Source of the DNA: Candidatus Komeilibacteria bacterium
GTDB lineage: Bacteria > Patescibacteriota > Patescibacteriia > UBA1558 > GWA2-36-10
Direction: 5' to 3'
Length of the DNA: 64,000 nucleotides
NCBI GenBank assembly: GCA_018656065.1
Contig: JABHZY010000024.1
Span: 5,227-69,226, forward strand
A program made the position numbers and the translations under genes. Below are positions 3,668 to 60,434 of this stretch, in pieces. The notes under the pieces are model-generated. The model was given only the letters and a program-made list of their open reading frames with translations, was not told the DNA's origin and did not search any database. How positions within the stretch are numbered: position 1 is the stretch's first letter; each line of letters begins with the position of its first letter.

Positions 3668-4637
3668 TTTACTTACTTGGAATGGTCAAAAGTATTTACC
3701 TTGGCTATTGAAGAGTTTATCTAAACAATCCTTTAAGGATTGGGAGCTTTTGGTTCTTGATAATGCCTCTACTGATAAATCAGTAGATATAATACGAGAA
3801 TATTATCCTAAGGCGAGAATTGTACATCAAAAACAAAATATTGGTTTTGCCAAAGGGCATAATCTACTTATTAATTGGTCTAATTCAGATTATATATTAG
3901 TTTTAAATCAGGATTTGATATTAGAGCCAAATTATATCAGAGAGCTGGTAGATTTTTTACAACAAAATACTAAAGTAGCTAGTTGTAGTGGTAAGTTAAT
4001 GTATTGGAATTTTAAGGCTGGTCTTAAAACTAAGACTATAGATTCTTATGGTTTTAAAATAGATAAAAAAAGAGAAGTGACTGATAGATATCAAGGACGG
4101 TCAGAAATAAAAATTGATAATGAAGAGGTCTTTGGCTTATCAGCTACGGCCACTTTATATAGACGCAAAGCACTGGAGATTATAGCTGGGCAAGCAAAAG
4201 CTAATCATTTTCAATATTTTGATGAAGATTTTTTTGCTTATAAAGAAGATATTGATTTAGCTTGGCGACTTAGATTATTTGCTTGGGAAAATTGGTTAGT
4301 TACTACTACTAAAGCTTATCATCACCGCAGTGTGTCTAAAGGTAAGGATCTTAAAGAGTCTCGTAAGACTAGGGGGTTTGCTAATAAACTTTCTTATCGC
4401 AATCATTTAATGTTACTTTATAAAAATTCTTTTTATAAAAACCTGTTTAAAGATTTTTTAGCTATTAAATGGTATGAGTTTAAAAAATTTGTTTATTTAT
4501 TATTATTTGAAAGAAGCACTCTAGTAGGTGTAAAAGAATATTTTGCTAATATTCCAAGTTTAGCTAAAAAAAGAAAATACATTATGAGACATAGAAAAGT
4601 GAATGCAGATGAAATATATAAATGGTTTGAAAAATAA
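3630..4637 (+). CDS. family 2 glycosyltransferase
   Basis: VTISLLTWNG...VLDNASTDKS and LNQD motifs. Confidence 0.85.
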   Translation: MDRMQKKPTVTISLLTWNGQKYLPWLLKSLSKQSFKDWELLVLDNASTDKSVDIIREYYPKARIVHQKQNIGFAKGHNLLINWSNSDYILVLNQDLILEPNYIRELVDFLQQNTKVASCSGKLMYWNFKAGLKTKTIDSYGFKIDKKREVTDRYQGRSEIKIDNEEVFGLSATATLYRRKALEIIAGQAKANHFQYFDEDFFAYKEDIDLAWRLRLFAWENWLVTTTKAYHHRSVSKGKDLKESRKTRGFANKLSYRNHLMLLYKNSFYKNLFKDFLAIKWYEFKKFVYLLLFERSTLVGVKEYFANIPSLAKKRKYIMRHRKVNADEIYKWFEK

Positions 4638-4638
4638 T

Positions 4639-5445
4639 ATGGAACTTTCAATTGTAATTTTAAATTATAATAATAAAAATTTAGTCAAAGAACTTTTAAA
4701 GAATTTGACAGAATTAAATATTTCATATCAGTATGAGATTATTGTAGTTGATAATGCTTCTTATGATGGCATAAAAGATATTATTAAAGAAAAATTTCCA
4801 AATATTAAATTTATTCAGAGTGACAAGAATGGCGGTTTTGCTTCTGGTAATAATCTTGGCATTAAAGAAGCTCAGGGTAAGTATATTATGATTATGAATC
4901 CTGATTTAGCAATTTTATCTGACGCTATAGATAAACTTTATCAATATATGGAAAATAATCTTGAGGTGGCTTTGGCTGGACCAAGATTAATTAATGCTGA
5001 TAAAAGTGTACAGCCATCTTGTACCACATTACCAGATTGGAAGCTACCAATGTACAGACGCACATCTTTAGCCAATACTAAAGCTGGGAAGAAATGGTTA
5101 GATAAATATTTAATGAAGGATTTAGATCATTATAAAAATAATTATGTCCCAGCTTTGTTTGGAGCTTGTTTAATTTTTCGTCGTGATGCGCTAGATAAGG
5201 TGGGTTTATTAGATGAGCGCTATTTTATGTATTTAGAAGATTTAGATTGGTCTCGTCGTTTTTGGCAGAATGGCTATAAAGTGGCTTATGTTGGCGAAGC
5301 TGAGATTATCCACTTACATCGTCGTCAATCAGCTGCCCAGGGGCTTTTGAAGACATTATTTTCCAAAACAGCTCGTAATCATATTATTAGTTTTGTTAAA
5401 TATCTCCTAAAATTTAAGGGTCAGAAATTACCTAAAATTTCTTAA
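4639..5445 (+). CDS. family 2 glycosyltransferase
   Basis: MELSIVILNYNN...VVDNASYDG and MNPD motifs. The ATG at 4639 sits just after the upstream stop and is preferred to the track start at 4603. Confidence 0.85.
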   Translation: MELSIVILNYNNKNLVKELLKNLTELNISYQYEIIVVDNASYDGIKDIIKEKFPNIKFIQSDKNGGFASGNNLGIKEAQGKYIMIMNPDLAILSDAIDKLYQYMENNLEVALAGPRLINADKSVQPSCTTLPDWKLPMYRRTSLANTKAGKKWLDKYLMKDLDHYKNNYVPALFGACLIFRRDALDKVGLLDERYFMYLEDLDWSRRFWQNGYKVAYVGEAEIIHLHRRQSAAQGLLKTLFSKTARNHIISFVKYLLKFKGQKLPKIS

Positions 5446-5506: not shown

Positions 5507-7009
5507 ATGGCAAAAAACCAAGAAAAAGAGCTTGATATCAATGATGAATATCAACAAAGATTAGCTAAATTAGATAATCTAAGAGAAGCTAAAATAGACC
5601 CTTATCCAGCCCAAAGTAATAAAACTACTGATGTGGCTGATTTTTTGAAAGATTTTGATAAATTATTAGCTAGCCAGAAGAAAATAATAATTGGAGGTAG
5701 GATTACTAGCTTACGTCTACAAGGTGGTTCCTGTTTTTTTCATTTTCAAGATTATTCGGGAAAAGTTCAAATATTTTTTAGAAAAGATCAGATCGGGGCA
5801 GAGGACTATAAAATTTTTAAAGAAAATATTGATACAGGCGATTTTATAGAAGTGGCTGGTACAGCTTTTGAAACTAAGACTAAAGAACCAACTCTTTTAG
5901 CTACAAGTTGGCAAGTTTTATCTAAGGCTTTATTGTCATTGCCAGATGAGTATTATGGCTTGAAAGATCCTGATCTTAGATTCAGAAAAAGATATTTAGA
6001 TTTATTAGTCAATCCAAAAGTAAAAGATACTTTTAAATTACGTAGCGATGTTATTAAATTGACTCGTCAATATTTTGATAAAGAAGGTTTTATAGAAGTA
6101 GACACTCCAGTTCTACAATCTGTAGCCGGCGGAGCCACCGCTGAGCCATTTATTACTCATCACAATGCTTTGGACATTGATATGTATCTTAGAGTCGCTC
6201 CTGAGTTGTATCTAAAACGTCTGATAGTTGGCGGCTATGATCAGGTTTATGAAATGGCTCGTTGTTTTAGAAATGAAGGTATAGATCATCAACATAATCC
6301 AGAGTTTACTCAAATTGAAGCTTATTGGGCATACAAAGAATATAGCTTTTTGATGGAATGGATGGAAAAATATTTTGAATTTTTAGTAAAGGGTATTAAC
6401 AATGGCGATACCAAAATAAAAAATGCTAAAGATATAATTGATTTTAAAGGACCATATCCAAGACTTGATTTTAAAGAAGCCTTAGACAAAGCTTTAAAAA
6501 TTGATCTTGATAAAACTAGTGATAAAGAATTGGTAGATATTGCTAAGCAAGCTAAGTTAGATGTCGATAAAACCTGGGGTAGAGGTAAGTTGTTAGATGA
6601 ACTGTATAAGAAATTTGTACGTTCCAAACTTATCCAACCAACCTTTATTATCAACCATCCGCTAGAGCTTTCTCCACTATCTAAGAAAATGCCAGATAGA
6701 CCAGGTTATGTAGAAAGATTTCAATTGGTAGTTAAAACTGCGGAACTTTGCAATGCTTTTTCTGAGCTCAATGATCCACTTGATCAAGAAGAGCGTTTTG
6801 CTGAGCAAAAGAAACTTCACGAAGCTGGCGATCAAGAAGCTCAAGGATCTGATGCCGAGTTTGTTGAAGCTCTTAAACATGGTATGCCGCCAACAGTTGG
6901 TTTAGGTGTTGGTATTGATAGATTAGTAATGATGCTTGGTGATATAGAAAATATCAAAGAAGTTATTTTATTTCCAACTATGAGACCAAAAAATAATGAA
7001 AATAAATAA
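5507..7009 (+). CDS. lysS: lysine--tRNA ligase (class II)
   Basis: 500 aa. OB-fold N-terminus and class II motifs including CFRNEGIDHQHNPEFTQIE and GVGIDRLVM. Confidence 0.97.
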   Translation: MAKNQEKELDINDEYQQRLAKLDNLREAKIDPYPAQSNKTTDVADFLKDFDKLLASQKKIIIGGRITSLRLQGGSCFFHFQDYSGKVQIFFRKDQIGAEDYKIFKENIDTGDFIEVAGTAFETKTKEPTLLATSWQVLSKALLSLPDEYYGLKDPDLRFRKRYLDLLVNPKVKDTFKLRSDVIKLTRQYFDKEGFIEVDTPVLQSVAGGATAEPFITHHNALDIDMYLRVAPELYLKRLIVGGYDQVYEMARCFRNEGIDHQHNPEFTQIEAYWAYKEYSFLMEWMEKYFEFLVKGINNGDTKIKNAKDIIDFKGPYPRLDFKEALDKALKIDLDKTSDKELVDIAKQAKLDVDKTWGRGKLLDELYKKFVRSKLIQPTFIINHPLELSPLSKKMPDRPGYVERFQLVVKTAELCNAFSELNDPLDQEERFAEQKKLHEAGDQEAQGSDAEFVEALKHGMPPTVGLGVGIDRLVMMLGDIENIKEVILFPTMRPKNNENK

Positions 7010-15801: not shown

Positions 15802-16527
15802 TTATTGTTTTTTTCGCTTATTTCTATAAATTAAATAGGGAAATTGTATAATAGCTCTATTTATACGGAATAACCTATTGGGTTGTAAAATCAGTCGCCA
15901 TAGCCATTCTAAGCCAAAACTTTGTATAAATTTTGGCGCTCTCTTCATTTTACCAGACATGAAGTCAAAAGTCCCGCCTACTCCAGCCGCTATTTTAAGC
16001 TTAGGAATTTGCTTTATATTTTCTGATATCCATATATCTTGCTTCGGTGCTCCGAAGCCAACTAACATAATTTCAGGAGCAAATAATTTAGCTTTAGCTA
16101 AAGCAGTATTTTCATCAGCTACCTGGAAATCAAGACTAGGATATTTGGCCTTGATAGTCATAAAAAACTGATCTGTCTTTGTCCAACCTTCGCTATATAA
16201 ACAAAACATTATTTTTAGATCTTGGTTAATAGCTTTGTCAATTAGTATTTCTGTTAGTCGTGCACCTGTGATTCGATCATCAAGAGAAACTTTATGACCC
16301 ATGTATTGCAGAGCCTTGATGATACCAGTGCCATCAATCAAAGAAATGCTAGATTGATTAATAATTTTTAAAAATTCTTTATTTTTTTGACTACTAACTA
16401 CAAATTCAGGATTAATAGTAGCTATTTGATGAGTTTTGTCAGAATTTAAAAATTCAAGCAATTTATTTTTTAAAAGATGCTCGGCAATTACATTTACTTT
16501 TACTCCTAGAAGATTATATTCGGTCAT
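15802..16527 (-). CDS. WecB/TagA/CpsF family glycosyltransferase
   Basis: 241 aa. VGFGAPKQDIWI and RAPKFIQSFGLEWLWRL family motifs. Confidence 0.85.
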   Translation of the reverse strand: MTEYNLLGVKVNVIAEHLLKNKLLEFLNSDKTHQIATINPEFVVSSQKNKEFLKIINQSSISLIDGTGIIKALQYMGHKVSLDDRITGARLTEILIDKAINQDLKIMFCLYSEGWTKTDQFFMTIKAKYPSLDFQVADENTALAKAKLFAPEIMLVGFGAPKQDIWISENIKQIPKLKIAAGVGGTFDFMSGKMKRAPKFIQSFGLEWLWRLILQPNRLFRINRAIIQFPYLIYRNKRKKQ

Positions 16528-17075
16528 AAGTCAAAGGCTTGTAAACTAGTAAATGATGGTCCAGTTTTACTCAATTCACTTTCTATAAGTTCAAAGTATG
16601 ACGCAAAGAATGATTTTTGTACTGACCAATTTTCAAATTCCTTAAATTCTTTAAAATCAGCTGTTTGTTTTACTCTAGCCAAAGTAAGGTGTGTAGAAAA
16701 TTTACGAACTTCTTTATGTGCTAAACCATCTTCAAATAAAACCTGTTCTATCTCATCATATAAGTTCTGTAAAATTTCATTTTCTTTTATTTTTAAAACT
16801 AGAACTTTTGGTTGACGTTCATTAAATATTTCAGTTTGGTCAATTTCAAGTTCCAAATCATTTATAGCAAGATCCAATTTATTCAAGCTATCTATAATAT
16901 CTGGTATTTTATCTATTGGCATTTCACCTAAAAATTTTAAAGTTAGATGAATTTGATCAGGGTGAACTTTTTTTATCTTTTCCCAAGGTAAATCGAGTGC
17001 TTCAAATTTTTTGAATATATCTTTAACAATACTTGGATCAATTGGTAGAGATATAAATAATCTTTTAGTTTCCAT
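16524..17075 (-). CDS. thpR: RNA 2',3'-cyclic phosphodiesterase (2H / LigT family)
   Basis: Two HxTx motifs: HLTLKFLG and HLTLARV. Confidence 0.85.
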   Translation of the reverse strand: METKRLFISLPIDPSIVKDIFKKFEALDLPWEKIKKVHPDQIHLTLKFLGEMPIDKIPDIIDSLNKLDLAINDLELEIDQTEIFNERQPKVLVLKIKENEILQNLYDEIEQVLFEDGLAHKEVRKFSTHLTLARVKQTADFKEFKEFENWSVQKSFFASYFELIESELSKTGPSFTSLQAFDL

Positions 17076-27142: not shown

Positions 27143-29857
27143 TTATTTACCATGGCATTTTTTATATTTCTTACCACTACCACAGTAACAAGGATCGTTT
27201 CGGCCAATACGCTTACCAGTCTCATCAATTGGTTTATTAGATACAGCAGGATTAGCTTGTGAACGATTAGCTACTTGTTTTTGGAAAGGTTGATAGCCTT
27301 GTTTTTGTTCTTCAAAAACTTTTTGACTCTCCCCTGGTTTAGGACCAGAGGCTACTGTATTTCGTTTCAAGTTGACTTTAAATATAGAATAAACTATTTG
27401 CTTTCTAATTGCCTCTAGTAATTGATTAAACAAATTAAAAGCCTCGCGTTTATATTCAATTAAAGGATCTTTTTGGCCATAACCTTGTAAACCAATTCCA
27501 GTTCGAAGTTTGTCCATAGCAGTTAAATGCTCTACCCATAAAGTATCAATACTTTTTAGAACAATACTGCGCTCAATAATTTGCATTGGCTTCCAAGTAT
27601 CATCTTGTAAATCAACATTAGCATTAATATCTTCGGTTAAGGCTAAATATTTATTTTTAGCAATGGAATTAATATACTCAATTACTTTATCTCTATTGTC
27701 ATGAGAATTACTTTTGCCGTTTTGAGTTAAAAGTTCTTTAATTTTAATTTCTTCTTCTGATTCTAAAACAAAAATTGATTTTAGAGTTTCTAAAATTTCT
27801 TTAGGATCAAAGTCACCAGTATTTTTTTCACCCAGCGTATGGAATGAAACTACACTTTCAATTTCTTGATCAACATATTCTAGTACTATATCTTGAGAAC
27901 TTTTTTCAGTCTTATGTTCTTTGTCAGAAAATATTTCAAGTAATTGTTGGCGAGAACCATAAACTACTTGGCGATGTTTGTTAATTACATCATCATACTC
28001 TACTAAGTGTTTTCTAATATCAAAGTTATGGCCTTCCACTTTTTTCTGAGCAGATTCTATAGAATTGGAAATTAATTTATTTTCTATAGGCATATCTTCA
28101 GCAATACCTAGTTTATCCATCATATTTTTCATACGATCTGAGCCGAAAATACGCATCAAATCATCTTCCATAGAAATATAAAATTGAGATGAGCCAATAT
28201 CACCTTGACGCCCAGCTCGACCACGGAGCTGATTATCAATACGACGTGATTCATGACGTTCTGTGCCGAGAACATGTAAACCACCTAATTCAATAATCTC
28301 ATCACATTTAGCTTTATCCATTGGTGAACCACCTAAAATAATATCTACACCACGGCCAGCCATATTAGTAGCTACTGTAACAGCGCCTTTGCGACCAGCT
28401 TGAGATATAATTTCAGCTTCTTTTTCATGAAATTTAGCATTCAATAAATTATGTGGAATACCAGCTTTTTCTAATAATTTGCCAAGTTCTTCATTTTTAT
28501 CAATAGAAATTGTACCAACCAACACCGGTTGACCCTTATCATGACGTTCTTGAATTTCCCTGACAATTGCTTTTAATTTGCCACGATAAGATTTATAGAT
28601 TTTATCTCCTTGATCGTCTCTAGAAAATGCTTTGTTAGTTGGAATAACAGTCACATCTAAATTATAAATCTTAGCCATTTCTTCTGCTTCCGTAGCTGCT
28701 GTACCTGTCATACCTCCTAATTTTTTATACATCCGGAAGTAATTCTGAAAAGTTACTGTAGCTAAAGTCATACTTTCCTTTTGAATTTCTACTCCCTCTT
28801 TAGCTTCAATAGCTTGATGTAAACCTTCACTATAACGACGACCAGGCATCATACGGCCAGTAAATTCATCAATAATAATTACTTCATTATCTTGAATTAC
28901 ATAATCTCTATCTTTGCTAAATAAAGTTTTAGCTTTTAAAGCTGATTCTATATGATGGACACTTTCCATACCATGACTTTCATATATATTGTCCACGCCC
29001 AAAGATTTTTCCATTTTACTTACACCCTCTTCAGTTAAGGTGCAAGCTTTCATTTTTTCATCAATATTATAATCTTCATTTTCTTTGAGAGTTTGAATCA
29101 TTTGAGCAAATTGTCCATAACGATCTGTAGATTGATCAGCTGGAGCAGATATAATTAATGGAGTTCTAGCTTCGTCAATTAAAACACTATCAACTTCATC
29201 AATCAAAGTATAGTGTAAACCACGCTGAACTTGTTTTTCACTATCTTGGGTCATGTTGTCTCTTAGATAATCAAAACCAAATTCATTATTAGTACCATAG
29301 GTAATATCAGCTTGGTAAGCCTCCTTTCTTTCTACTGGACGTAGAGAATCATCTTCACTTGTGTCATAAACAAAAGCACTGTCATGAGCAATTACACCAA
29401 TGCTAATACCTAAAAAATCATAAACTTTTGCCATCCAAACAGCATCACGTTTAGCTAAATAATCATTTACAGTAATAACGTGTACACCTTTATCTGATAA
29501 AGCATTAAGATAAACTGCTAAAGTGGAAGTAAGAGTTTTACCCTCCCCTGTTTTCATTTCAGCAATCTGACCTTGATGTAAAACAATGCCTCCTAAAATT
29601 TGTACATTATAATGCCGTTGTCCCAAAGTACGTTGAGCAGCAACTTTTATAAGGGCAAAAGCCGGCACCAGGACATCATCCAATTTGGTACCGTCTTGTA
29701 TTTGCTTTTTTAGATTTAGACTTTCTTTTTTTAATTCGTCGTCGTTGAGTTTGAGAAATTCCTTTTCTTTTTCGTTTATAGCATCAACTTGTGGTTGTAA
29801 GCTTTTCAAGAATTTTTCATTCGCATCGCCAAATAGTTTATCTAGAAATTTTAACAT
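27143..29857 (-). CDS. secA: preprotein translocase ATPase SecA
   Basis: 904 aa. MKTGEGKTL Walker A, DEVDSVLIDEARTPLIIS, and the C-terminal zinc motif CYCGSGKKYKKCHG. Confidence 0.98.
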   Translation of the reverse strand: MLKFLDKLFGDANEKFLKSLQPQVDAINEKEKEFLKLNDDELKKESLNLKKQIQDGTKLDDVLVPAFALIKVAAQRTLGQRHYNVQILGGIVLHQGQIAEMKTGEGKTLTSTLAVYLNALSDKGVHVITVNDYLAKRDAVWMAKVYDFLGISIGVIAHDSAFVYDTSEDDSLRPVERKEAYQADITYGTNNEFGFDYLRDNMTQDSEKQVQRGLHYTLIDEVDSVLIDEARTPLIISAPADQSTDRYGQFAQMIQTLKENEDYNIDEKMKACTLTEEGVSKMEKSLGVDNIYESHGMESVHHIESALKAKTLFSKDRDYVIQDNEVIIIDEFTGRMMPGRRYSEGLHQAIEAKEGVEIQKESMTLATVTFQNYFRMYKKLGGMTGTAATEAEEMAKIYNLDVTVIPTNKAFSRDDQGDKIYKSYRGKLKAIVREIQERHDKGQPVLVGTISIDKNEELGKLLEKAGIPHNLLNAKFHEKEAEIISQAGRKGAVTVATNMAGRGVDIILGGSPMDKAKCDEIIELGGLHVLGTERHESRRIDNQLRGRAGRQGDIGSSQFYISMEDDLMRIFGSDRMKNMMDKLGIAEDMPIENKLISNSIESAQKKVEGHNFDIRKHLVEYDDVINKHRQVVYGSRQQLLEIFSDKEHKTEKSSQDIVLEYVDQEIESVVSFHTLGEKNTGDFDPKEILETLKSIFVLESEEEIKIKELLTQNGKSNSHDNRDKVIEYINSIAKNKYLALTEDINANVDLQDDTWKPMQIIERSIVLKSIDTLWVEHLTAMDKLRTGIGLQGYGQKDPLIEYKREAFNLFNQLLEAIRKQIVYSIFKVNLKRNTVASGPKPGESQKVFEEQKQGYQPFQKQVANRSQANPAVSNKPIDETGKRIGRNDPCYCGSGKKYKKCHGK

Positions 29858-37611: not shown

Positions 37612-38271
37612 TTACTTAGTACTTATTACTATCCATTGGCCACTTTCATCTTTTTTCATTTCTAATTTACTAAATTTAGCAAACATTTTTTCTAATTCTA
37701 CTTTGTCATAAAAACTATGAGGTATATCTTTTTCGGGACCAATTAAAGGAATGGCTGTATTTTTATCTAACATCTTATGTTCTTTGAAAGTTCGCCAAGT
37801 CTTTAAACATTTCTTGTCCGGAATAGTTATAAAAGTTTTACCTCCATCCATAAGAGCAGTATAAATTTCGTTTACTAATTTTTGTAAATCTTTTTTAAAA
37901 CCATGATTAATTGTTCGAATAGATATTATAAGGTCGTATTTATTAGGGATTATTTTCATATTAAACATATCAGCCTGTTTTATATTCCCTACTTTAAGCC
38001 CTAAAACCTCTTTGGTCATAGCTACTGAGGTTTCACTAAAATCAATCCCATCCACTTTAAAACCCAAGGAAGCTAAATAATTTAGATACTGTCCTTTACC
38101 ACAACCAATATCAAAAACATAACTATCTTTAAAATTTGTTTTAGATACAAATTCAACAAATAAAGGACTGATACCTTCTATAAAACAACAAGGTACCACT
38201 CCATCATTCATATCTTGCCAACTTTCATCTTTTTTATTAAAAGCTTTGTAGATTTTATCCCAATTTGCCAT
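37612..38271 (-). CDS. class I SAM-dependent methyltransferase
   Basis: Motif I VFDIGCGKGQY. Confidence 0.8.
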   Translation of the reverse strand: MANWDKIYKAFNKKDESWQDMNDGVVPCCFIEGISPLFVEFVSKTNFKDSYVFDIGCGKGQYLNYLASLGFKVDGIDFSETSVAMTKEVLGLKVGNIKQADMFNMKIIPNKYDLIISIRTINHGFKKDLQKLVNEIYTALMDGGKTFITIPDKKCLKTWRTFKEHKMLDKNTAIPLIGPEKDIPHSFYDKVELEKMFAKFSKLEMKKDESGQWIVISTK

Positions 38272-38322: not shown

Positions 38323-38442
38323 TTATTTGGTTTTTTTCTTAGCTTTTTCTTCAAGCATCACTCGTTTTGCTTCTAGTCTTTTAGCTGTTTTTTTAGAGCT
38401 AGATTTTTGTACTCTACCAACAGCATGTCTTCTTTTTGCCAT
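38323..38442 (-). CDS. unlisted small basic protein (39 aa) MAKRRHAVGRVQKSSSKKTAKRLEAKRVMLEEKAKKKTK
   Basis: ATG-to-TAA ORF below the track cutoff. Immediately followed by the CCGCC/GGCGG terminator (38302-17). About 45 percent K+R. Confidence 0.45.
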   Translation of the reverse strand: MAKRRHAVGRVQKSSSKKTAKRLEAKRVMLEEKAKKKTK

Positions 38443-40779: not shown

Positions 40780-41568
40780 TTAATATTGTCCTTTGCCTTT
40801 ATATTTTCCACTACGTACAGCTTCAGCTCCGCCTATCTCTGCCTGATTTGTTTTATGGTAGGCTTCAGAGGCAGTGAATTCAGATAAAATTTTCTCAATC
40901 ATTTCTGGCTGATCTTTATAACGTTCACGTAAAAAATCTTCTGCTGCTAAAAACTTAACTTCCATTGAGACTAGCTCTGGCTTCTTTTCCTTCATTGCTT
41001 CCCAAAAAGCTTCAGCTCTATCAAGACGTAAATCAAGTAAGAGGAAAGCTACTTTAGTTAATCCCTCGGCATGAGCAAGCTCTATTGAATTTTCAACATC
41101 ATCCTGAGTAGTTTTAGTCTTATCAAGTATTTTTATATTTTCATTACCTAAATTTTCAGAAGCATTAGTTTCTCTTTCAAATACTTCCATCATAGGTCCA
41201 GCTTCACTTAAAGAAGGATTATCGGCTGCATGTTTATCAAGAGCAGCAGCACGTCCTGCGGCAAAAATAACTAGCTTTGGAGGAACCCCCTTTTTTACTA
41301 GATCTTCATAATATTGCGCTGCAGCCAATGTTACGGCATTACCTCCACCAACAATGGCATTTTCACCGTCTTTATCTAAGTCTAAGTTCCTTTCTGCTGT
41401 TCGCCAGCCTTTATCATCAACTTCTTGAATAAGACGCGTAGGCTTCCATTTTTCTTCTCCTTTGACATCTACACGTTCAATACTATGCCCAGGAACAACA
41501 ATGACTTCTGCCTGATACAATTCTGACGGTTCTTGTTCTGCAGATAATTTTTCTCTATTAAACTTCAT
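40780..41568 (-). CDS. hypothetical protein (262 aa)
   Basis: ORF with no signal peptide. The ATG lies 6 nt after a TACAAT -10. Family not recognised with confidence. Confidence 0.55.
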   Translation of the reverse strand: MKFNREKLSAEQEPSELYQAEVIVVPGHSIERVDVKGEEKWKPTRLIQEVDDKGWRTAERNLDLDKDGENAIVGGGNAVTLAAAQYYEDLVKKGVPPKLVIFAAGRAAALDKHAADNPSLSEAGPMMEVFERETNASENLGNENIKILDKTKTTQDDVENSIELAHAEGLTKVAFLLLDLRLDRAEAFWEAMKEKKPELVSMEVKFLAAEDFLRERYKDQPEMIEKILSEFTASEAYHKTNQAEIGGAEAVRSGKYKGKGQY

Positions 41569-41574
41569 AGCTTT

Positions 41575-41607
41575 ATTGTAGCTTATTTTAGAAAAACAAA
41601 AAAGCCC
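41575..41607 (-). promoter_or_regulatory. conserved 33-nt promoter motif, copy 1
   Basis: Minus strand GGGCTTTTTTGTTTTTCTAAAATAAGCTACAAT. Nearly identical to the copies at 43270 and 43941. Confidence 0.55.
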
Positions 41608-41621
41608 AAAAATTTGGGCAA

Positions 41622-41802
41622 AAGAAAAAAGATTGAGAGGGGTTGGTGTGAAAGAAAAAGTGTTGATGGGGTTTGTTGTTGTGTGATAAGTGTGCAGTGT
41701 TGGGGATGCACTTTCTACTGCCTAACTTTTAAGCTTCAGAAAGCACATCCACAATCACTATACTTATCTTCCCTACGATTTCTTTCTACTCTCAATCTTT
41801 GA
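41622..41802 (-). ncRNA. orphan rod-like RNA E (about 180 nt), family unknown
   Basis: TTTACA-16-TATTAT promoter (41836-41809, minus). 11-bp closing stem 41629-39 / 41789-99 followed by U6. 13-bp apical stem 41704-16 / 41748-60 with two wobble pairs valid only on the minus strand. The 3' arm is CA- and C-rich. Confidence 0.55.
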
Positions 41803-41863
41803 GTCCTAATAATAACATATCTATAAAATATGTAAAGTCTAAGTTATACACAAGGTGTCCATT

Positions 41864-43243
41864 TTAATTCACTACTATTACACTATTTAAATCAGGATCT
41901 CCACTAACAGTATAAGTGCCATAAGTATTAATTTTCCAGACAAAGTAAGCTTGACCATTATCATCGGCTACTATTATTTGTCGTTTTGCTGCGACTACTC
42001 CTGGACCAGCTAAGGACAAAGTCATTTCAGTACCTGGGACAGTGGCTATAGCAGCGTAAATTTCACTGTATTCTCCTGGCTTAACATGTTCAAAAGAAGT
42101 TTGCATTACTATACTAAGTTCTTGTCCATCAAATTCTCCAACTAATCCACTAGTTTCCGTTTCGGTCATTGGATCAAGAGCTGTACCACTACTTAAAGGA
42201 GTTTCCCAAATTTGAACAAAACCCCAACTTAATGCTGTAATACCTTCGTAAGGACCATAATTTGTTATTCGATTACTACGCACCTCTACGGTCTCTGACC
42301 CTTCTTCAGCATCTGTGTAAGGATCATTGATATCTAAATAAGTTTGACCATCACCCTGATGAATCCCAGTAACAGTTACCATATGTCCACCAGTAGATTT
42401 ACCATCTGCATTAGCAAACTTTATACGTAATTCAACAGAAGCACCTTTTTCTAAAGCCTCTCTAATAGGATCTATAGTTTCAATGCCGTGTGTATCACCT
42501 ACTTTTGTAGTTCTAATTGGCAAGCCATGTCTAGCTGCCCAAAGATTTTTACCAGTTACAAAATCATCAGACTGAACACCATTAGCCATATTCCATTTCA
42601 TATCTTCTTTCAGCTCCTCTATCAATTCTTCTGGTTTTATAGATTTGTCTTCAGCATCTCCATGTTGATTTATGAGCGAGATTAAACCATTGGCTGCTGC
42701 GGTAGGAGCGCACTCACCTTTTTTTTGATCTATATCAGGTACATTCTCTTGAGTTATTTCAATTAATCCGTCATCAGCATAGACCAAATTAACTCCTAGG
42801 CCTTTCATAGCTTCTTCTGGATTGGTAATGGTGTCCAAATCCATTAACTCACTTAAATCAGATATTTTTATACTTACATTTTTACTAACACTTTCATCAT
42901 CAAGTTGGACTAAAATATTTTGTTCTTCAACAAAATTATCTGGCGCTTTAAAATATACTTTATTTCTTTTATTAGCTTTAGCTAAGACCATCATATCTTT
43001 AACTAGCCATTCAGTAGCTTCAAATATTCCGTTGTTATCTGAATCTATGGCTAAACTTAATTTACTTCTACTATCTTCACTTGCTAAAAAGTTGATTCCT
43101 AGGGCAGCATTGCCATTATTATAGCTAATAAGGCTTAAATCTGAGCCCAAAACAGCTATATCAGGCTCCTTATCCTGACCTTTTAGTAAGAATATAGCTA
43201 TTATAACTATAATTATTACAATAATTGGTATTATTTTCTTCAT
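41864..43243 (-). CDS. membrane-anchored surface protein with a papain-like (C39-like) cysteine peptidase domain
   Basis: N-terminal TM helix. KKGECAPTAAANGLISL (candidate catalytic Cys) and STGGHMVTVTGI...NDPY (candidate His/Asp). Confidence 0.6.
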   Translation of the reverse strand: MKKIIPIIVIIIVIIAIFLLKGQDKEPDIAVLGSDLSLISYNNGNAALGINFLASEDSRSKLSLAIDSDNNGIFEATEWLVKDMMVLAKANKRNKVYFKAPDNFVEEQNILVQLDDESVSKNVSIKISDLSELMDLDTITNPEEAMKGLGVNLVYADDGLIEITQENVPDIDQKKGECAPTAAANGLISLINQHGDAEDKSIKPEELIEELKEDMKWNMANGVQSDDFVTGKNLWAARHGLPIRTTKVGDTHGIETIDPIREALEKGASVELRIKFANADGKSTGGHMVTVTGIHQGDGQTYLDINDPYTDAEEGSETVEVRSNRITNYGPYEGITALSWGFVQIWETPLSSGTALDPMTETETSGLVGEFDGQELSIVMQTSFEHVKPGEYSEIYAAIATVPGTEMTLSLAGPGVVAAKRQIIVADDNGQAYFVWKINTYGTYTVSGDPDLNSVIVVN

Positions 43244-43269
43244 ATATTTATATTAAAGATTATAATTTT

Positions 43270-43302
43270 ACTATAGCTTATTTTAGAAAAACAAAAAAGC
43301 CC
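43270..43302 (-). promoter_or_regulatory. conserved 33-nt promoter motif, copy 2
   Basis: Minus strand GGGCTTTTTTGTTTTTCTAAAATAAGCTATAGT. Confidence 0.55.
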
Positions 43303-43340
43303 TGAAGTAGGGCTATAGAATAATATTAGAACTTTTTTAA

Positions 43341-43934
43341 CTAAATAATTTTAAATGCTATTAAGATAGCAATAATAATTAAACTTGCAGCGGCAAGTTC
43401 TTTTTTAAATCTTAACTTATCTACTCTTTCTGCAAAATAAATTGCAATTGATACTTGTATGAGTGTAGCTACATATATGCCTATGATAACTAAAGTTTTT
43501 TCGTAGAAATTACGCTCTAAAAAAATAGGCACAATCACAATAATATCATCCAGTATAGTTAAAAAAGATATAACAAAGCCTAGACCTATTAATTCCAGAA
43601 AACGAGCATTACTTATCTTTTTTATTTTGGCCACTTCTTTGGCTGTTTGTTTTTTACGCTCTGGCATAAAAAGACCAAAATAAATACCAATAGCTAAGGT
43701 AATAATAATACCAGCGATAATATAACGTACACCCGGAACACTTTTAATAGCTTCTGAAAATAAAATAGCCAAAATTATAGCTGCGGTAAGTGATAATAAT
43801 GTACCAATTGAAAAAGCTACTTTACCGAGCCTTGTTTTGGTAAGTGATGCAATGACTGGAATTCTAGTTAATGTATCATCAAAGCTAGCTACTGCTTTTA
43901 CTAAAAAACCTAAACTTATATTTTTGAATATCAT
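43341..43934 (-). CDS. integral membrane protein (197 aa, about 6 TM helices)
   Basis: Hydrophobic throughout. The ATG lies 6 nt after a TATGAT -10. Confidence 0.6.
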   Translation of the reverse strand: MIFKNISLGFLVKAVASFDDTLTRIPVIASLTKTRLGKVAFSIGTLLSLTAAIILAILFSEAIKSVPGVRYIIAGIIITLAIGIYFGLFMPERKKQTAKEVAKIKKISNARFLELIGLGFVISFLTILDDIIVIVPIFLERNFYEKTLVIIGIYVATLIQVSIAIYFAERVDKLRFKKELAAASLIIIAILIAFKII

Positions 43935-43940
43935 GACTGT

Positions 43941-43973
43941 ATCATAGCTTATTTTAGGGAAACAAAAAAGCCC
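43941..43973 (-). promoter_or_regulatory. conserved 33-nt promoter motif, copy 3
   Basis: Minus strand GGGCTTTTTTGTTTCCCTAAAATAAGCTATGAT. Confidence 0.55.
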
Positions 43974-43979
43974 CTAGGA

Positions 43980-44008
43980 TTGACAATATTAGTATAAAAT
44001 AGTTATAT
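43980..44008 (+). promoter_or_regulatory. promoter of the 139-aa gene
   Basis: TTGACA, 17 nt, TTATAT. Divergent from motif copy 3. Confidence 0.55.
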
Positions 44009-44058
44009 GTAGTTGTTAGTATAGTTCTTGTCACAAACCTCGGAAAGAGGGTGTCATT

Positions 44059-44478
44059 ATGTACTGGAAAAATGATGCTGAAGCAATCGCATTTTTACAA
44101 TCGCGCGGACAACTAATCCCTATGGATCCTAAAGACATCAGAGAAGTTGCCACATTAATTCTTGATTTAGAATTAAAGAGGGCTAGAGAAGCTGAAGAGG
44201 CAGCTGAAAAAAGAACTGCTAGAGAAAAAAGAGGTCTCCGAAATTGGGATATAATCAAAAGAGGTCGCGAAGTTGTAGAAGCTGAAGAGGCAGCTGAAGA
44301 AGCTCGCATCAGACAGGCTGCAGCCGATGAATTTAAGCGACGAAAAGAAGCTGAGGAGGCGGCTAATCGTTGTTCATCATGCGGTAAAATTAAAAAAACC
44401 TGTAACACATGCAGTACGACGGTATGTTGTGGAACAAACATAAGTGGGTACTGCTGGCATTGCTGGCATGATGATTGA
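44059..44478 (+). CDS. orphan GC-rich protein (139 aa): charged helical region plus Cys-rich C-terminus
   Basis: SD AGAGGGTG before the ATG. EAEEAAE repeated three times. Tail CSSCGKIKKTCNTCSTTVCCGTNISGYCWHCWHDD. Own terminator. Confidence 0.65.
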   Translation: MYWKNDAEAIAFLQSRGQLIPMDPKDIREVATLILDLELKRAREAEEAAEKRTAREKRGLRNWDIIKRGREVVEAEEAAEEARIRQAAADEFKRRKEAEEAANRCSSCGKIKKTCNTCSTTVCCGTNISGYCWHCWHDD

Positions 44479-44513: not shown

Positions 44514-44619
44514 ATCTAAAATTTACAAACAAAAAATCATCTCAAAAGATGACTTTCTGTTGACAGGGGTGTTGGGACATGATTGGAACTTTTTTTGATG
44601 AAAATGCTTAATAATTGTA

Positions 44620-45041: not shown

Positions 45042-46106
45042 CTAAACTATATTCCCACTGGCAATCAACTCATCTTTTTTATAAACAGCCAATATCTGTC
45101 CCGAAGCTACGCCAGCTTGAGATTTTTTAAACTCAGCTATTAGATCTCTCGACTTCGCTCGAGATGACAAAACGATGTCTTGACCAGGCTGTCGATAGCG
45201 GATTTGAGCCTTAGCTTTAAGAGGTAATTTATGCTCCTTACCAAGCCAATGTAAATCAGTCATTTGAACACTTTTGTTGTACAGAGCCTCATCATCTACA
45301 TGACCGACTATAAGTTTGTTATTTTTAATATCTTTAGATACTACATACCATGGACCAGAACCACCAATATCCAAACCTTTCCTTTGTCCAATCGTATAAT
45401 ACCAAACACCTTGATGCTCACCCAAGACATTACCTTTAGTATCGACTATCTCCCCTGTCTTAGGTTTTATTTTTTGTTGTAAAAATATTTTAAGATCTAC
45501 TTTACCAATAAAACAAATTCCCTGACTATCTTTACGGTCAGCATTTGGTAGTTTGGCTTGCTTAGCAATTTTACGAACTTCAGGTTTCTCGATATCGCCA
45601 ATTGGAAAGACTGCTTTGGAAAGCTGGGTTTGATTTAAACCGGCTAGAAAATATGATTGGTCTTTATTTAGATCTTTACCTCTTAGTAAATGAAATCCAT
45701 CCTTATCTTCTTTGACTTGAGCATAATGCCCAGTAGCTATTTTATCAAAACCAAGTTTGATAGCTTTTTCTAAAAACAACTTAAATTTGATTTCATTATT
45801 ACATAAGACATCAGGATTTGGAGTCAGACCTGCCTTATAATTATCAAATATATAATTTACTACCTTGTCATGATATTCTGCTTCAAAATCAAAAGTCTGA
45901 ATAGGCACTTTAAGATGTGCAGCTACTCTATAAGCCATTAAACGGTCTTCTTTCCAAGGACAAGTGCCTTTAACATTCACTTTTTCGGAAAAGTTTTTCA
46001 TAAAGGCAACCTCTACTTCATAGCCTTGTTGTTGTAGTAAATACAAAGCCACAGCGCTATCTACACCGCCAGAAAGCCCTACTAAAATTTTGGTTTTCTT
46101 TGTCAT
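45042..46106 (-). CDS. mnmA: tRNA 2-thiouridine(34) synthase
   Basis: PP-loop VGLSGGVDS and conserved catalytic Cys regions. Confidence 0.95.
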   Translation of the reverse strand: MTKKTKILVGLSGGVDSAVALYLLQQQGYEVEVAFMKNFSEKVNVKGTCPWKEDRLMAYRVAAHLKVPIQTFDFEAEYHDKVVNYIFDNYKAGLTPNPDVLCNNEIKFKLFLEKAIKLGFDKIATGHYAQVKEDKDGFHLLRGKDLNKDQSYFLAGLNQTQLSKAVFPIGDIEKPEVRKIAKQAKLPNADRKDSQGICFIGKVDLKIFLQQKIKPKTGEIVDTKGNVLGEHQGVWYYTIGQRKGLDIGGSGPWYVVSKDIKNNKLIVGHVDDEALYNKSVQMTDLHWLGKEHKLPLKAKAQIRYRQPGQDIVLSSRAKSRDLIAEFKKSQAGVASGQILAVYKKDELIASGNIV

Positions 46107-57583: not shown

Positions 57584-59683
57584 TTATAAATCTAAATCGT
57601 TTACCTTTTCCCAATCATTTTCATTTAAAACTGCCACGTAATCATTAGCTATAACATACATATAGTCATCCAAATATAAAGCGCGTTTTACATCTGGTAC
57701 ATTAAGCGCTCTAACTAACTCTAGGCTATCATTAGCATATGAAAATACATAACCGCCTTTATAAGATGGTAAGAAAAATACTTCATGTTTTGGATCTTGT
57801 AAAAAGGCATGATGATTATGTAAGGCTTCACTACCATACTCTTCTAAAGAATATTTAGCAATTTCTCTTGGGTTACTTGGATCTGACACATCAAAATTAG
57901 AAATTTTTACTTGTCTATTTTCCATGCCTATACCTAATATATTATCTTCTGATAATGGATGTAAATATGATGAATAACCAGGAATCTTTAATTGACCAAC
58001 CATTTTTGGATCTTTTGGATTAGATAAATCTAAAGTATAAAATGGGTCAGTTTGTCTGAAAGTTACTAAATAACCTACTTCACCAATAAATCTAGCAGCG
58101 TAAATGCGCTCACTTAAACCTAAGTCTAAAATAGAACCTTTAATCTTTAAATTTTTATCTAAGACATAAACATCATTAACTTGAGTATCACGACCACCTC
58201 TTCCAAAACCCCAACGTTCACCAATGGTAGTAGCCACCCTAAGATGATTATCATATTCATCCATTGAAAACTGATTTAATAGATACCCAGGTACTGTACC
58301 GGTAGCATCAATTTTTAAATTATCAATATCAATTTTTACAATTCCAGTAGTATTTAAATATCTTTTATTATCTTCATAATAATCAACCATTCTGTTCTGC
58401 ATCTCATTTTCTAATTTCAAGGTCTCATCTTTATCTAAAGATTGCATCCAATCATTTAATACAGTTTGCAGTTCATTCAATTTAGAACTATTACTAATAT
58501 CATAAGTACTTAATTTTTTTAATTTCTTTTGTACTTCTGCAGATACCAAGCCGTCCATTTTAGTAGTCATAAAATCAAACATAAAATCAAACATATCTAA
58601 ATTTTGATTATAAGCTACATAAAGAGCCTCTTTTGACATATAAACATTTGAGCTTCCCTGATCACCTACAAAAGAAATACTATCGTCAAACTCTCCAGAT
58701 TCAACATCCAAACTTAAAGCTGTAAAAGTAGAGCTTATTTGCCCTGGATTAACTGGATAATATATATCACCACAAGGCACTAACATTGCCTCACCCTCTC
58801 TAATAAACGGACTAATTGGACAAGGATTATAAGTATTTATTCTAGTCTGAGTGAGTAAGTAAATCTTATCATTATATAATCTAGAAGTTGTTAACCAAGT
58901 ATTATCATCTAATTTTACATCCCACTTTTTATTTGGGTCTTTAGGATCTGACACATCATAAGCTACTATATCTTGCCCTGAAAATACAACTAAAGTATCA
59001 TTTGCTAAAAGTAAATCACCAGTTAAATCAATTTTAGAGCTGAGCTCTAAATCACTTACTGGCCAAGCATTTATAATATTAGTTTTAGTTTTATTTTCAA
59101 ATTGTACTTTTTCAAAATTTCCATCTAAATCAAAATCTTCTATAAGCACTGGAGATCCAGCAGTTGCCCAATAACCACTTATATCAGAAAAGAAAATTTC
59201 CTTACCGTTGGTTTTGACAATATCTGGCTCATCAATACCCATAACTTGCACATTTGTATCTGAAACTCTATCTGGACTGCCGCCTCCGTCTCCCCAAACA
59301 ACAGCTTCGTTTATACCCATATCTTTAGCCATCCCAACACTATCCTCCATCATCATTGCTGGTTCTGCAAAAGAACGTACAGAATTAATACCGTAATTTA
59401 CTGAATCATTTACTTCTTTTAAATAAGCTTTAAATTCATCCGCAGACTTAAACTTTTTAAAATTAGTATCTTTGGCTAATCTATTTGTTAAAGGGTTAAA
59501 ATTTAAATGCTGATTATTGTTAGGACTAGTATCTATTTTGGAAACCATAGTCACTAAAGCTACTGCGGATAATAAAATTAAAGCCACTAAATAAACTGGG
59601 GTAAAACCAAATTTATTAAATATAGATTTTTTATTTTTTTTCCTTGATTTTGCTCTTCTTTCAGAGAGTTTGTTTTTAAACAT
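57584..59683 (-). CDS. secreted beta-propeller domain protein
   Basis: N-terminal TM/signal segment. TNVQVMGIDEPDIVKTNGKEIFF-type motif and repeated blades. Confidence 0.7.
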   Translation of the reverse strand: MFKNKLSERRAKSRKKNKKSIFNKFGFTPVYLVALILLSAVALVTMVSKIDTSPNNNQHLNFNPLTNRLAKDTNFKKFKSADEFKAYLKEVNDSVNYGINSVRSFAEPAMMMEDSVGMAKDMGINEAVVWGDGGGSPDRVSDTNVQVMGIDEPDIVKTNGKEIFFSDISGYWATAGSPVLIEDFDLDGNFEKVQFENKTKTNIINAWPVSDLELSSKIDLTGDLLLANDTLVVFSGQDIVAYDVSDPKDPNKKWDVKLDDNTWLTTSRLYNDKIYLLTQTRINTYNPCPISPFIREGEAMLVPCGDIYYPVNPGQISSTFTALSLDVESGEFDDSISFVGDQGSSNVYMSKEALYVAYNQNLDMFDFMFDFMTTKMDGLVSAEVQKKLKKLSTYDISNSSKLNELQTVLNDWMQSLDKDETLKLENEMQNRMVDYYEDNKRYLNTTGIVKIDIDNLKIDATGTVPGYLLNQFSMDEYDNHLRVATTIGERWGFGRGGRDTQVNDVYVLDKNLKIKGSILDLGLSERIYAARFIGEVGYLVTFRQTDPFYTLDLSNPKDPKMVGQLKIPGYSSYLHPLSEDNILGIGMENRQVKISNFDVSDPSNPREIAKYSLEEYGSEALHNHHAFLQDPKHEVFFLPSYKGGYVFSYANDSLELVRALNVPDVKRALYLDDYMYVIANDYVAVLNENDWEKVNDLDL

Positions 59684-59747: not shown

Positions 59748-60434
59748 CTAGTTAGCGCCAAAACGTCTATGTCTTTTATCAAACTCTTCTATAGCTAGGT
59801 CTAAATCTGCTTGACTAAAATCTGGCCAGTCTGTTTCAGGAAAATAAAATTCACTATAGACTGATTGCCAAGTTAAAAACCCAGATAAGCGTTGTTCGCC
59901 AGAAGTACGTATTATCATATCAGGATCAAGCATGCCAGCTGAATCAATATTTTGACTAATTATGTCTTCTGTAATTTGATCCGCTGTAATTCCAGCTTGA
60001 CTAATTTTTTTATAAGCCCTAACTAATTCATCTCTACCTCCATAGCTTAAACAAATATTTAATATTCCTTTTTTACCATCTTTAGTTTTTTCTAAGGCTG
60101 TAGTCATAGATTTTTGTATATCATCAGCAAAATCTTCTCGTCTACCAAAAAAATTCACTTTAACTCCTTGCTTGGCTAAAATATTTATTTCTTTATTTAT
60201 CAATAATCTAAATAGATCCATCAGATAAACTACTTCTTTTTTATCTCTGTTCCAATTTTCTGTAGAAAAAGCATAGACAGTTAAAATTTTAATACCTTTA
60301 TCAAAGGCGTACTGAGCAATAGTTTTTAAATTTTCAAAACCTTGCCGATGACCTTCAAAAGTAGGCAAACCTTTTGCTCGAGCCCAACGACGATTACCAT
60401 CTAATATAATACCTATATGTTTTGGAATTTTCAT
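59748..60434 (-). CDS. uppS: isoprenyl transferase (undecaprenyl diphosphate synthase)
   Basis: HIGIILDGNRRWA and RTSGEQRLSGFLTWQ motifs. Confidence 0.95.
   Translation of the reverse strand: MKIPKHIGIILDGNRRWARAKGLPTFEGHRQGFENLKTIAQYAFDKGIKILTVYAFSTENWNRDKKEVVYLMDLFRLLINKEINILAKQGVKVNFFGRREDFADDIQKSMTTALEKTKDGKKGILNICLSYGGRDELVRAYKKISQAGITADQITEDIISQNIDSAGMLDPDMIIRTSGEQRLSGFLTWQSVYSEFYFPETDWPDFSQADLDLAIEEFDKRHRRFGAN

Follow-up and report, generated by a model that had tools for sequence, protein, structure and literature searches.

The closest described system to the locus reported here appears, as far as can be judged from its sequence, to be the promoter-early stem-loop (PeSL) cassettes of T4-type phages, repeats that join a stem-loop terminator to a sigma-70 promoter (Arbiol et al. 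2010, PMC2839356; Comeau et al. 2014, PMC4122927). PeSLs lie upstream of ORFans in hyperplastic regions, number about 50 per phage genome, mark the boundaries of insertions and deletions and form mini-circles; their promoter activity, their terminator activity and the mini-circles have all been shown experimentally (PMC2839356, PMC4122927). Promoters are also carried by the intergenic repeats, 29 bp and 58 bp, of halovirus HF2 (Russ et al. 2021, PMC8707807). We analysed a 64,000-nucleotide (nt) stretch of DNA from Candidatus Komeilibacteria bacterium (contig JABHZY010000024.1; hereafter the window), in which a short motif recurs upstream of three adjacent minus-strand genes lying between mnmA and greA. 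On balance, we favour the view that this motif is a locally duplicated terminator-promoter junction in the variable mnmA-greA island of a Komeilibacteria-like bacterium of the candidate phyla radiation (CPR).

The unit found at this locus resembles PeSL cassettes in several respects. Both are short composite intergenic units in which a stem-loop terminator is joined to a sigma-70-type promoter (in our case as predicted features), both recur directly before small genes, accessory or ORFan, that cluster in a hyperplastic region, and in both each gene gets its own promoter and insulator. Of the boundaries compared here, one at strain level falls at the edge of the repeat. It differs from PeSLs in residing on a cellular CPR chromosome, with no DNA similarity to phage records, in being present in 3-4 copies instead of some 50, in having no recognisable -35 box, in ending at a leaderless ATG where PeSLs end in a Shine-Dalgarno sequence, and in being known from sequence alone, whereas the PeSL activities are experimental. 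The HF2 repeats are likewise short, promoter-bearing and placed upstream of genes, but they belong to an archaeal virus with archaeal promoter architecture, are dispersed and conserve their position across a genus (PMC8707807). The repeat described here, in contrast, occupies one island only and is shared by just two sister lineages.

The preliminary description of the window had listed three minus-strand copies of the motif, each with a TAnnnT hexamer behind the core, and pattern search and shuffling confirmed them. On the minus strand, the pattern GGGCTTTTTTGTTTNNCTAAAATAAGCTA matched exactly three times in the window, at 41579-41607 (m1, core GGGCTTTTTTGTTTTTCTAAAATAAGCTA, 29 nt), 43274-43302 (m2) and 43945-43973 (m3), all within 2.4 kb and in one orientation, while 100 dinucleotide shuffles of the window (G+C 30-38%) gave 0 matches. 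In agreement with what had been reported, alignment of the cores showed that m1 and m2 are identical (29/29) and that m3 shares 27 of the 29 positions with them, its two differences being adjacent changes, TT to CC. No fourth copy was found in the window at 3 or fewer mismatches to GGGCTTTTTTGTTTNNCTAAAATAAGCTA, and a profile built from all the known copies (nhmmer, 5 copies, run on the window and 8 related loci) added nothing in the window to the three already listed. Each copy lies directly upstream of one open reading frame (ORF), encoding a protein of 262 amino acids (aa) behind m1, a 459-aa Peptidase_C39_2-like protein behind m2 and a 197-aa polytopic membrane protein behind m3. The hexamer follows each core in register (TACAAT in m1, TATAGT in m2 and TATGAT in m3), at 6 nt from the ATG in m1 and m3 and at 26 nt in m2, so that the placement of the copies immediately before gene starts also stood as described. 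Sequence and gene order were identical in at least 24 independent metagenome assemblies from several samples, and the arrangement is therefore not an assembly artefact. A sister lineage, represented by an 860,313-bp contig (L076), carries 2 copies, both at this same locus: a counterpart of m3 and a further copy, m4.

Read in the direction of the genes, the motif appears to be composite, its first 10 nt (GGGC plus T6) corresponding in m1 and m2 to the 3' arm and U-tail of a predicted intrinsic terminator of the upstream gene. In m1 these 10 nt complete a terminator-like hairpin at 41598..41619 (minus strand; GCCCAAA-tt-TTTGGGC followed by T6, -9.1 kcal/mol), and in m2 they complete another at 43293..43314 (minus strand; AGCCCT-acttc-AGGGCT followed by a T-run, -8.8 kcal/mol), which stands behind the 197-aa gene. 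Both stems are 6 bp long, G+C-rich and directly behind an upstream co-directional gene, and m1 (41604-41619 plus T6) and m2 (43298-43314 plus the T-run) thus combine the G+C-rich hairpin, the U-tract and the co-directional upstream gene that define an intrinsic terminator. The 5' arms and loops differ between copies, the arm being GCCCAAA in m1, AGCCCT in m2 and, in m4, the AGCCCC of an intergenic repeat designated R2; only complementarity to the motif has therefore been retained. The 5' arm of the m2 hairpin lies within 43303-43340, a segment resembling a diverged R2 copy (27/42, by eye on the alignment), and m4 closes a longer hairpin (-18.9 kcal/mol when folded from the R2 arm onward).

In the window, m3 does not qualify as a terminator, as there is no hairpin upstream of it (-0.2 kcal/mol) and its neighbour is divergent. 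From the lack of an upstream gene to terminate, the preliminary description had argued that the G3C-T6 part is conserved as part of the element and is not merely a terminator tail, a claim that lost weight once the sister lineage was considered. There, m3 follows a co-directional gene and closes a hairpin, and at least 30 nt of the sequence before it match that of m4; furthermore, a site at 6643-6666 of L076 (profile E = 0.008) retains only the 5' half of the motif, GGGCTTTTTTATTTCCC, behind a hairpin and between convergent genes, with the promoter half absent. Given this terminator context of m3 in the sister lineage, the 5' part of m3 in the window is best read as an inherited relic. Rfam gave no match in 41500-44100 at E values up to 1, and only a tRNA-Gln in the whole window at gathering thresholds. 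Phase variation through the T6 and T5 runs was also considered and rejected, the runs being short and of constant length in every copy and strain.

A promoter very probably occupies the 3' end of the motif. Near-consensus -10 hexamers lie exactly 6 nt before the ATG at 9 of the ~60 gene starts in the window, those of the m1 and m3 genes included, against 0, 1 and 1 at distances of 5, 7 and 8 nt, and this enriched geometry supports the promoter part of the earlier interpretation. Examples of gene starts listed with this peak are 11523, 16524..17075, 19860, 27143..29857, 37612..38271, 57584..59683 and 59748..60434. With a spacing of 6 nt, which is also that of m4, the first transcribed base (+1) would be the A of the start codon, giving a leaderless mRNA; no Shine-Dalgarno sequences are visible at the window gene starts, and widespread leaderless mRNAs would be implied for this CPR genome. 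In m1 (promoter end 41566..41580, minus strand), TACAAT (41580-41575) is separated by the 6-nt discriminator AAAGCT from the ATG at 41568-41566, and in m3 (43932..43946, minus strand) TATGAT (43946-43941) is separated by ACAGTC, also 6 nt, from the ATG at 43934-43932, both in leaderless geometry. In m2 (43241..43275, minus strand), TATAGT (43275-43270) is followed by AAAATT and ATA, the 459-aa gene having its real ATG at 43243-43241.

Together with TAnnnT, the conserved G-14 and C-13 would make up an ordinary housekeeping-type -10 region. GC at -14/-13 recurs before the hexamer at other window promoters, for example GCTATAAT and GCTAAAAT, and the motif hexamers TACAAT, TATAGT and TATGAT, all of which follow GC, are similar to these two and share the 6-nt spacing to the ATG; GCTAnAAT-type -10 regions are also present at other promoters of the window. 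No good -35 box was found, the T6 run filling the -35 position at a spacing of 17 nt. The segment GTTTYYCTAAAATAA belongs, alongside T6 and G-14, to a 46-nt unit running from GGGC to the ATG. The same tight packing of terminator T-run, -10, 6 nt and ATG was seen in unrelated sequence at the genes 37612..38271 and 59748..60434, and the architecture is therefore generic for this genome, only the particular sequence being local.

The extent of similarity between copies bears on how they arose. Paralogous copies share 25-29 of the 29 core positions, and the 30 nt upstream agree only at random level (3-13/30, with 28% identity expected). Downstream, m1, m2 and m4 remain alike past the core and up to the start codon, following GCTA-yrr-TAAA(GC/AT)TAT(G/A) with 10-11 matches in 13 positions, so that the similarity reaches the start codon in 3 of 4 different junctions. 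Where m4 has ATG, m2 has ATA, the real ATG of the 459-aa gene being found 20 nt further on, and the AAAATT+ATA of m2 looks like a dead copy of the AAAATT+ATG start of m4. In L076, the whole 121-nt intergenic region, consisting of R2, a hairpin insert and the motif, is duplicated with ~90% identity. The similarity that reaches the start codon, the ATA of m2 and the 121-nt duplication therefore point to a copied junction and not to convergence on an operator. Finally, one boundary between the window and L076 coincides with the motif: homology begins within 1-2 nt of the 5' edge of m3 and ends immediately past the point where the 197-aa reading frame stops.

Taken together, these observations would be accounted for by a junction working in three steps. 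GGGC and T6, as can be read from the hairpins, would form the descending arm and U-tract of a terminator ending the upstream transcript. G-14/C-13 and TAnnnT, on the strength of the sequence and of the positional enrichment, would then act as an extended -10-like promoter for the housekeeping sigma factor in the absence of a good -35; at m1, m3 and the m4 of the sister lineage the transcript would start at the A of the ATG and be leaderless, and at m2 it would carry a short leader of ~20 nt, again with no Shine-Dalgarno sequence. The near-identity of the copies would reflect common descent, the junction having been copied or recombined, start codon included, from one intergenic region to its neighbour. 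All the accessory genes would in this way be given the same insulating terminator and the same promoter, and similar constitutive expression of separate transcription units is a likely consequence. The repeats may also supply homology for the gain, loss and swapping of genes, by analogy with the PeSL cassettes of T4-type phages.

It should be considered that several results weigh against this reading. Between m1 and m2 the core is identical at 29/29 positions and the next 13 nt at only 8/13 (Fisher p = 0.0015), and in the promoter spacer, where variation is usually tolerated, nothing but TT/CC has changed. This excess conservation of the core would likewise be consistent with a site bound by a protein or with gene conversion still under way, and we cannot separate selection on a site from homogenisation as its cause. 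The hairpins of L076 showed no extra stability over shuffled controls, and m3 in the window has kept GGGC-T6 although it has no hairpin and no gene to terminate. Only one rearrangement boundary falls at the edge of the motif, that of a related contig (L088) being at the ATG. Moreover, no deletion or insertion variants between the copies were found among the at least 24 assemblies, and hence no direct sign of ongoing recombination; this search consisted of look-ups of the exact 459-aa, 262-aa and 197-aa proteins, all of which returned the same gene order.

The distribution of the motif in relatives proved very narrow. The mnmA genes of L076 and the window are 81% identical in nucleotide sequence, and below mnmA the two share one block, 43336-43972 in window coordinates, which comprises the motif and the 197-aa gene at 91% identity. 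The sister lineage (L076/L040) accordingly has the motif before its 197-aa orthologue, and the m3 core differs there at 1 of 29 positions though the 197-aa genes differ by 9%. Scanning of the GTDB representative genomes with GTTTNNCTAAAATAAGCTA gave 61 loci, all but one of them unrelated singletons, the only representative with the real motif being Candidatus Komeilibacteria bacterium SI047_bin69, which has 2 copies on one contig. JGI metagenomes scanned with TTTTNGTTTNNCTAAAATAAGCTA gave 6 loci, 3 of them real and all from this locus; a scan of viral contigs gave 1 chance match, and blastn of the locus and of the 121-nt L076 unit against 50,697 phage records gave no match. After these scans we rejected a genome-wide repeat or regulon: the genome search, which might have uncovered a frequent generic repeat, left the motif restricted to this locus in the GTDB scan, on the 860-kb contig and, of the 448-kb contig of the window lineage, within the 64 kb covered. 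Upstream of the L088 orthologue of the 197-aa gene, at 82-84% nucleotide identity, the motif is absent; that gene stands behind a helicase-like gene, homology starts at its ATG and its promoter is TATACT-N6-ATG. It is also absent upstream of the 197-aa orthologues in L079, L080 and L083, and orthologues at 65% amino-acid identity have other promoters.

Three candidate diverged copies were examined and are not claimed. The promoter of 37612..38271 (GGTTTTTATTCTTCAATAAGTTATAAT) looked related by eye but had E = 56, and both the region upstream of the 459-aa orthologue in the relative L086 (GCTTTTTTGATATACTAAAAT) and the 16-mer TAAAATAAGCTACAAT before the 40-aa gene of L086 were absent from the profile search at E up to 100. 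The 16-mer is largely a generic AAGCTAnAAT -10 region. Repeats of the REP/BIME (repetitive extragenic palindromic/bacterial interspersed mosaic element) and BOX types and the Correia elements of Neisseria occur in tens to hundreds of dispersed copies with terminal inverted repeats, and Correia elements can supply promoters and terminators. The intergenic regions of the island are, like them, mosaics of short reusable modules, but the motif is present in 2-3 copies per genome, at one locus, in one orientation and without terminal inverted repeats.

The preliminary description had explained the motif as a dedicated operator, UP-element or alternative-sigma promoter, a regulator or special sigma factor recognising the conserved 29 nt and co-regulating the three units. 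Under an operator, the segment GTTTYYCTAAAATAAGC would be the putative protein-binding stretch, and such a site would account well for a core, 17-nt spacer included, that is far better conserved than the inner -10 positions and the discriminator, for the constant orientation of every copy towards its gene at a fixed distance from the -10, for the presence of the full core in m3 without a terminator context, and for the single change in the 29-nt m3 core between lineages whose 197-aa genes are 9% divergent. As in a small-regulon operator, several adjacent units have one and the same sequence overlapping their promoters. The motif lacks, however, the unlinked sites, the internal symmetry and the conservation with orthologues that would mark a regulon operator. 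There is no dyad or direct-repeat symmetry, and a weak TTTT-CT-AAAA symmetry is broken by the TT to CC change in m3 (TTTCCCTAAAA). The 3 copies in 64 kb and the 2 on the 860-kb sister contig all belong to one locus, with no unlinked sites, and the motif is missing before a 197-aa orthologue that is still 82-84% identical in nucleotides, as well as in more distant lineages. The -10 with G-14/C-13 is that of ordinary promoters of the genome, so that a special sigma factor is not needed, and no elements unlike those of housekeeping promoters were seen; an UP-element is no better a fit, the repeat sitting downstream of -40 and not at the position of such elements. The similarity of m1, m2 and m4 up to the start codon and the dead start of m2 fit copying and not convergence, and the downstream genes are functionally unrelated. 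With an ordinary -10, no dyad and one locus only, we found no positive evidence for this proposal, and we regard it as unlikely.

A little less probable still, in our opinion, is that a site-specific recombinase acts on the motif, or that homologous crossovers occur there by preference, and that promoter-plus-gene cassettes are moved in this way, in an integron-like or PeSL-mini-circle-like fashion. The motif and the 197-aa gene do behave as a unit within unrelated DNA when the window is compared with L076, the genes behind m1 and m2 are missing from the sister lineage, and the mnmA-greA island is different in each lineage examined. A run of 29 identical bases is also about the minimum usually quoted for RecA-dependent exchange. 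Against such a role, neither the ~10 kb around the motif in the window lineage nor the retrieved L076 island contains a gene for an integrase, a transposase or any other recombinase, neither an attC-like imperfect palindrome nor terminal inverted repeats could be found, and excision or insertion variants were lacking in all of the at least 24 assemblies. In L088 the 197-aa gene has moved without the motif, homology running from the ATG. The repeat differs from integron attC/attI sites in that it travels with its downstream gene, carries a promoter and is not palindromic, whereas attC forms the 3' end of promoterless cassettes; recombinase domains are, besides, absent from the neighbouring genes of the window and of the L076 island. 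The contig L003 (HAWL17-1 scaffold_5035), in which the left flank of the sister lineage is joined to the right flank of the window lineage inside the 197-aa gene, was rejected as proof of a strain break at the motif, the crossover being ~145 nt inside that gene and not at the motif, and possibly an assembly chimera. Contigs L009, L010, L094 and L095 begin inside the 197-aa gene. L003 and these breaks reflect either two co-occurring lineages with chimeric assemblies or real recombinants.

Chance resemblance of AT-rich promoter and terminator sequence, or an assembly artefact, can be dismissed as extremely improbable and was refuted by the shuffles and the independent assemblies: T-runs and TAAAAT-like strings are common in a genome of 32% G+C, and the short core CTAAAATAAGCTA at 2 mismatches is not enriched (14 found, 10.7 expected), but three matches of 27-29/29 stand against 0 in 100 shuffles, and at least 24 independent assemblies, made from several samples, contain the identical sequence.

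We conclude that the locus is not an integron array, not a dispersed repeat of the REP/BOX/Correia type and not a demonstrable regulon operator. Phage morons are promoter-gene-terminator units inserted between genes, generally without a common repeated boundary sequence. With them the locus shares the accessory gene as an autonomous unit provided with its own promoter and terminator; it differs in that the boundary itself is the repeat.

The island deserves description in its own right. The window encodes cellular housekeeping genes (MnmA, GreA, SecDF and an aminoacyl-tRNA synthetase) and belongs to a 448-kb metagenomic contig; the three genes behind the motif lie between mnmA (45042..46106) and greA, in a stretch that differs in every relative examined. 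The term accessory island used in the preliminary description was borne out by this strain variability of the window relative to L076, L086 and L088, and its reference to surface and membrane protein genes holds for two of the three. The 197-aa membrane protein gene (43341..43934, minus strand) encodes ~5 hydrophobic segments and is the only island gene that the sister lineage also has (91% nucleotide identity), and the product of the 459-aa gene (41864..43243, minus strand) has an N-terminal anchor and a Peptidase_C39_2 domain. The 262-aa gene (40780..41568, minus strand), in contrast, encodes no hydrophobic segment and has no Pfam match, although one distant homologue recovered by protein search carries PF02698; it probably heads an operon with the genes for a 199-aa lipoprotein-like protein and a 545-aa NAGPA-domain protein, the gaps being 25 nt and 3 nt. 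Homologues of the 459-aa and 262-aa proteins reached no more than 69% identity, and the 860-kb sister contig has none. In L086, the mnmA-greA slot is taken by a KAP-NTPase gene, an HNH gene and others; the segment 2879-7448, with a KAP-family NTPase (1006 aa), a 195-aa protein and an HNH endonuclease, resembles a defence-type insertion.

The intergenic regions of the island can be described as mosaics of short modules, namely R2, the CCTGAGCGAACGCAGTGAGTCGAA hairpin insert and the motif. R2 (ATCAAAAAAGGTTCCAATCATGTCCCATAGCCCC) closely follows stop codons in several intergenic regions, in three lineages, where it supplies the 5' arm of terminator hairpins: at 44559-44604 of the window (minus strand), at 3863-3906, 5045-5084, 5728-5765 and 7795-7865 of L076 and at 1867-1917 and 2676-2721 of L088. 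A further element, GTCCTGAGCGAACGCAGTGAGTCGAATGGAGG, occupies terminator loops of L076 (648-679, 5095-5126 and 5777-5808), is absent from the matching window junctions and resembles a small insertion element. The 256-nt gap from the 459-aa gene to m1 (41596-41863, minus strand) is not empty. Positions 41596-41810 form a long imperfect hairpin (-68.5 kcal/mol, z = -6.6 relative to shuffles), then comes the m1 terminator; a promoter-like site, TTTACA-16-TATTAT with a TG, precedes the hairpin at 41836-41809, and a 30-nt tandem repeat lies within it at 41621-41679. This stretch has no Rfam match and was found in this lineage only; it is a candidate ~200-nt small RNA or palindromic insertion.

Two further small ORFs were noted. 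Divergent from m3, a 139-aa ORF at 44059-44478 (plus strand) contains three ~36-nt internal repeats (EAEEAA-rich) and encodes a Cys-rich C-terminus (CSSCGKIKKTCNTCSTTVCCG...CWHCWH) with no Pfam match. The window lineage has this ORF, the sister lineage does not, and m3 adjoins its TTGACA box at the 5' end of the motif. A gene for a very basic 39-40-aa protein, MAKRRHAVGRVQKSSSKKTAKRLEAKRVMLEEKAKKKTK, lies between the NAGPA-domain and methyltransferase genes, at 38323-38442 of the window (minus strand) and at 11706-11828 of L086. It is kept in this relative, whose neighbouring 459-aa protein is 62% identical, and ORF-length cut-offs easily miss it.

A more ambitious view, which we put forward with considerable reserve, is that the locus is a cellular counterpart of PeSLs, in which a CPR bacterium builds and reshuffles an accessory island by homologous exchange between terminator-promoter cassettes ending at a leaderless ATG. 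In that event, an ORF landing behind such a cassette would at once be insulated, transcribed and translatable without a ribosome-binding site. No new regulatory principle is revealed by these data, and the evidence for mobility comes from a handful of copies in two lineages. If the duplicated terminator-promoter junction that we favour is right, the locus would be a compact case of a small genome devoid of Shine-Dalgarno sequences wiring newly acquired genes through one junction of 40-odd nt, copied together with, or ahead of, each accessory gene. It would also provide a testable pair of promoter and terminator for CPR bacteria, whose promoters are almost uncharacterised, a marker of a gene-flux hot spot between mnmA and greA and, possibly, a cellular parallel to PeSL-mediated modular shuffling.

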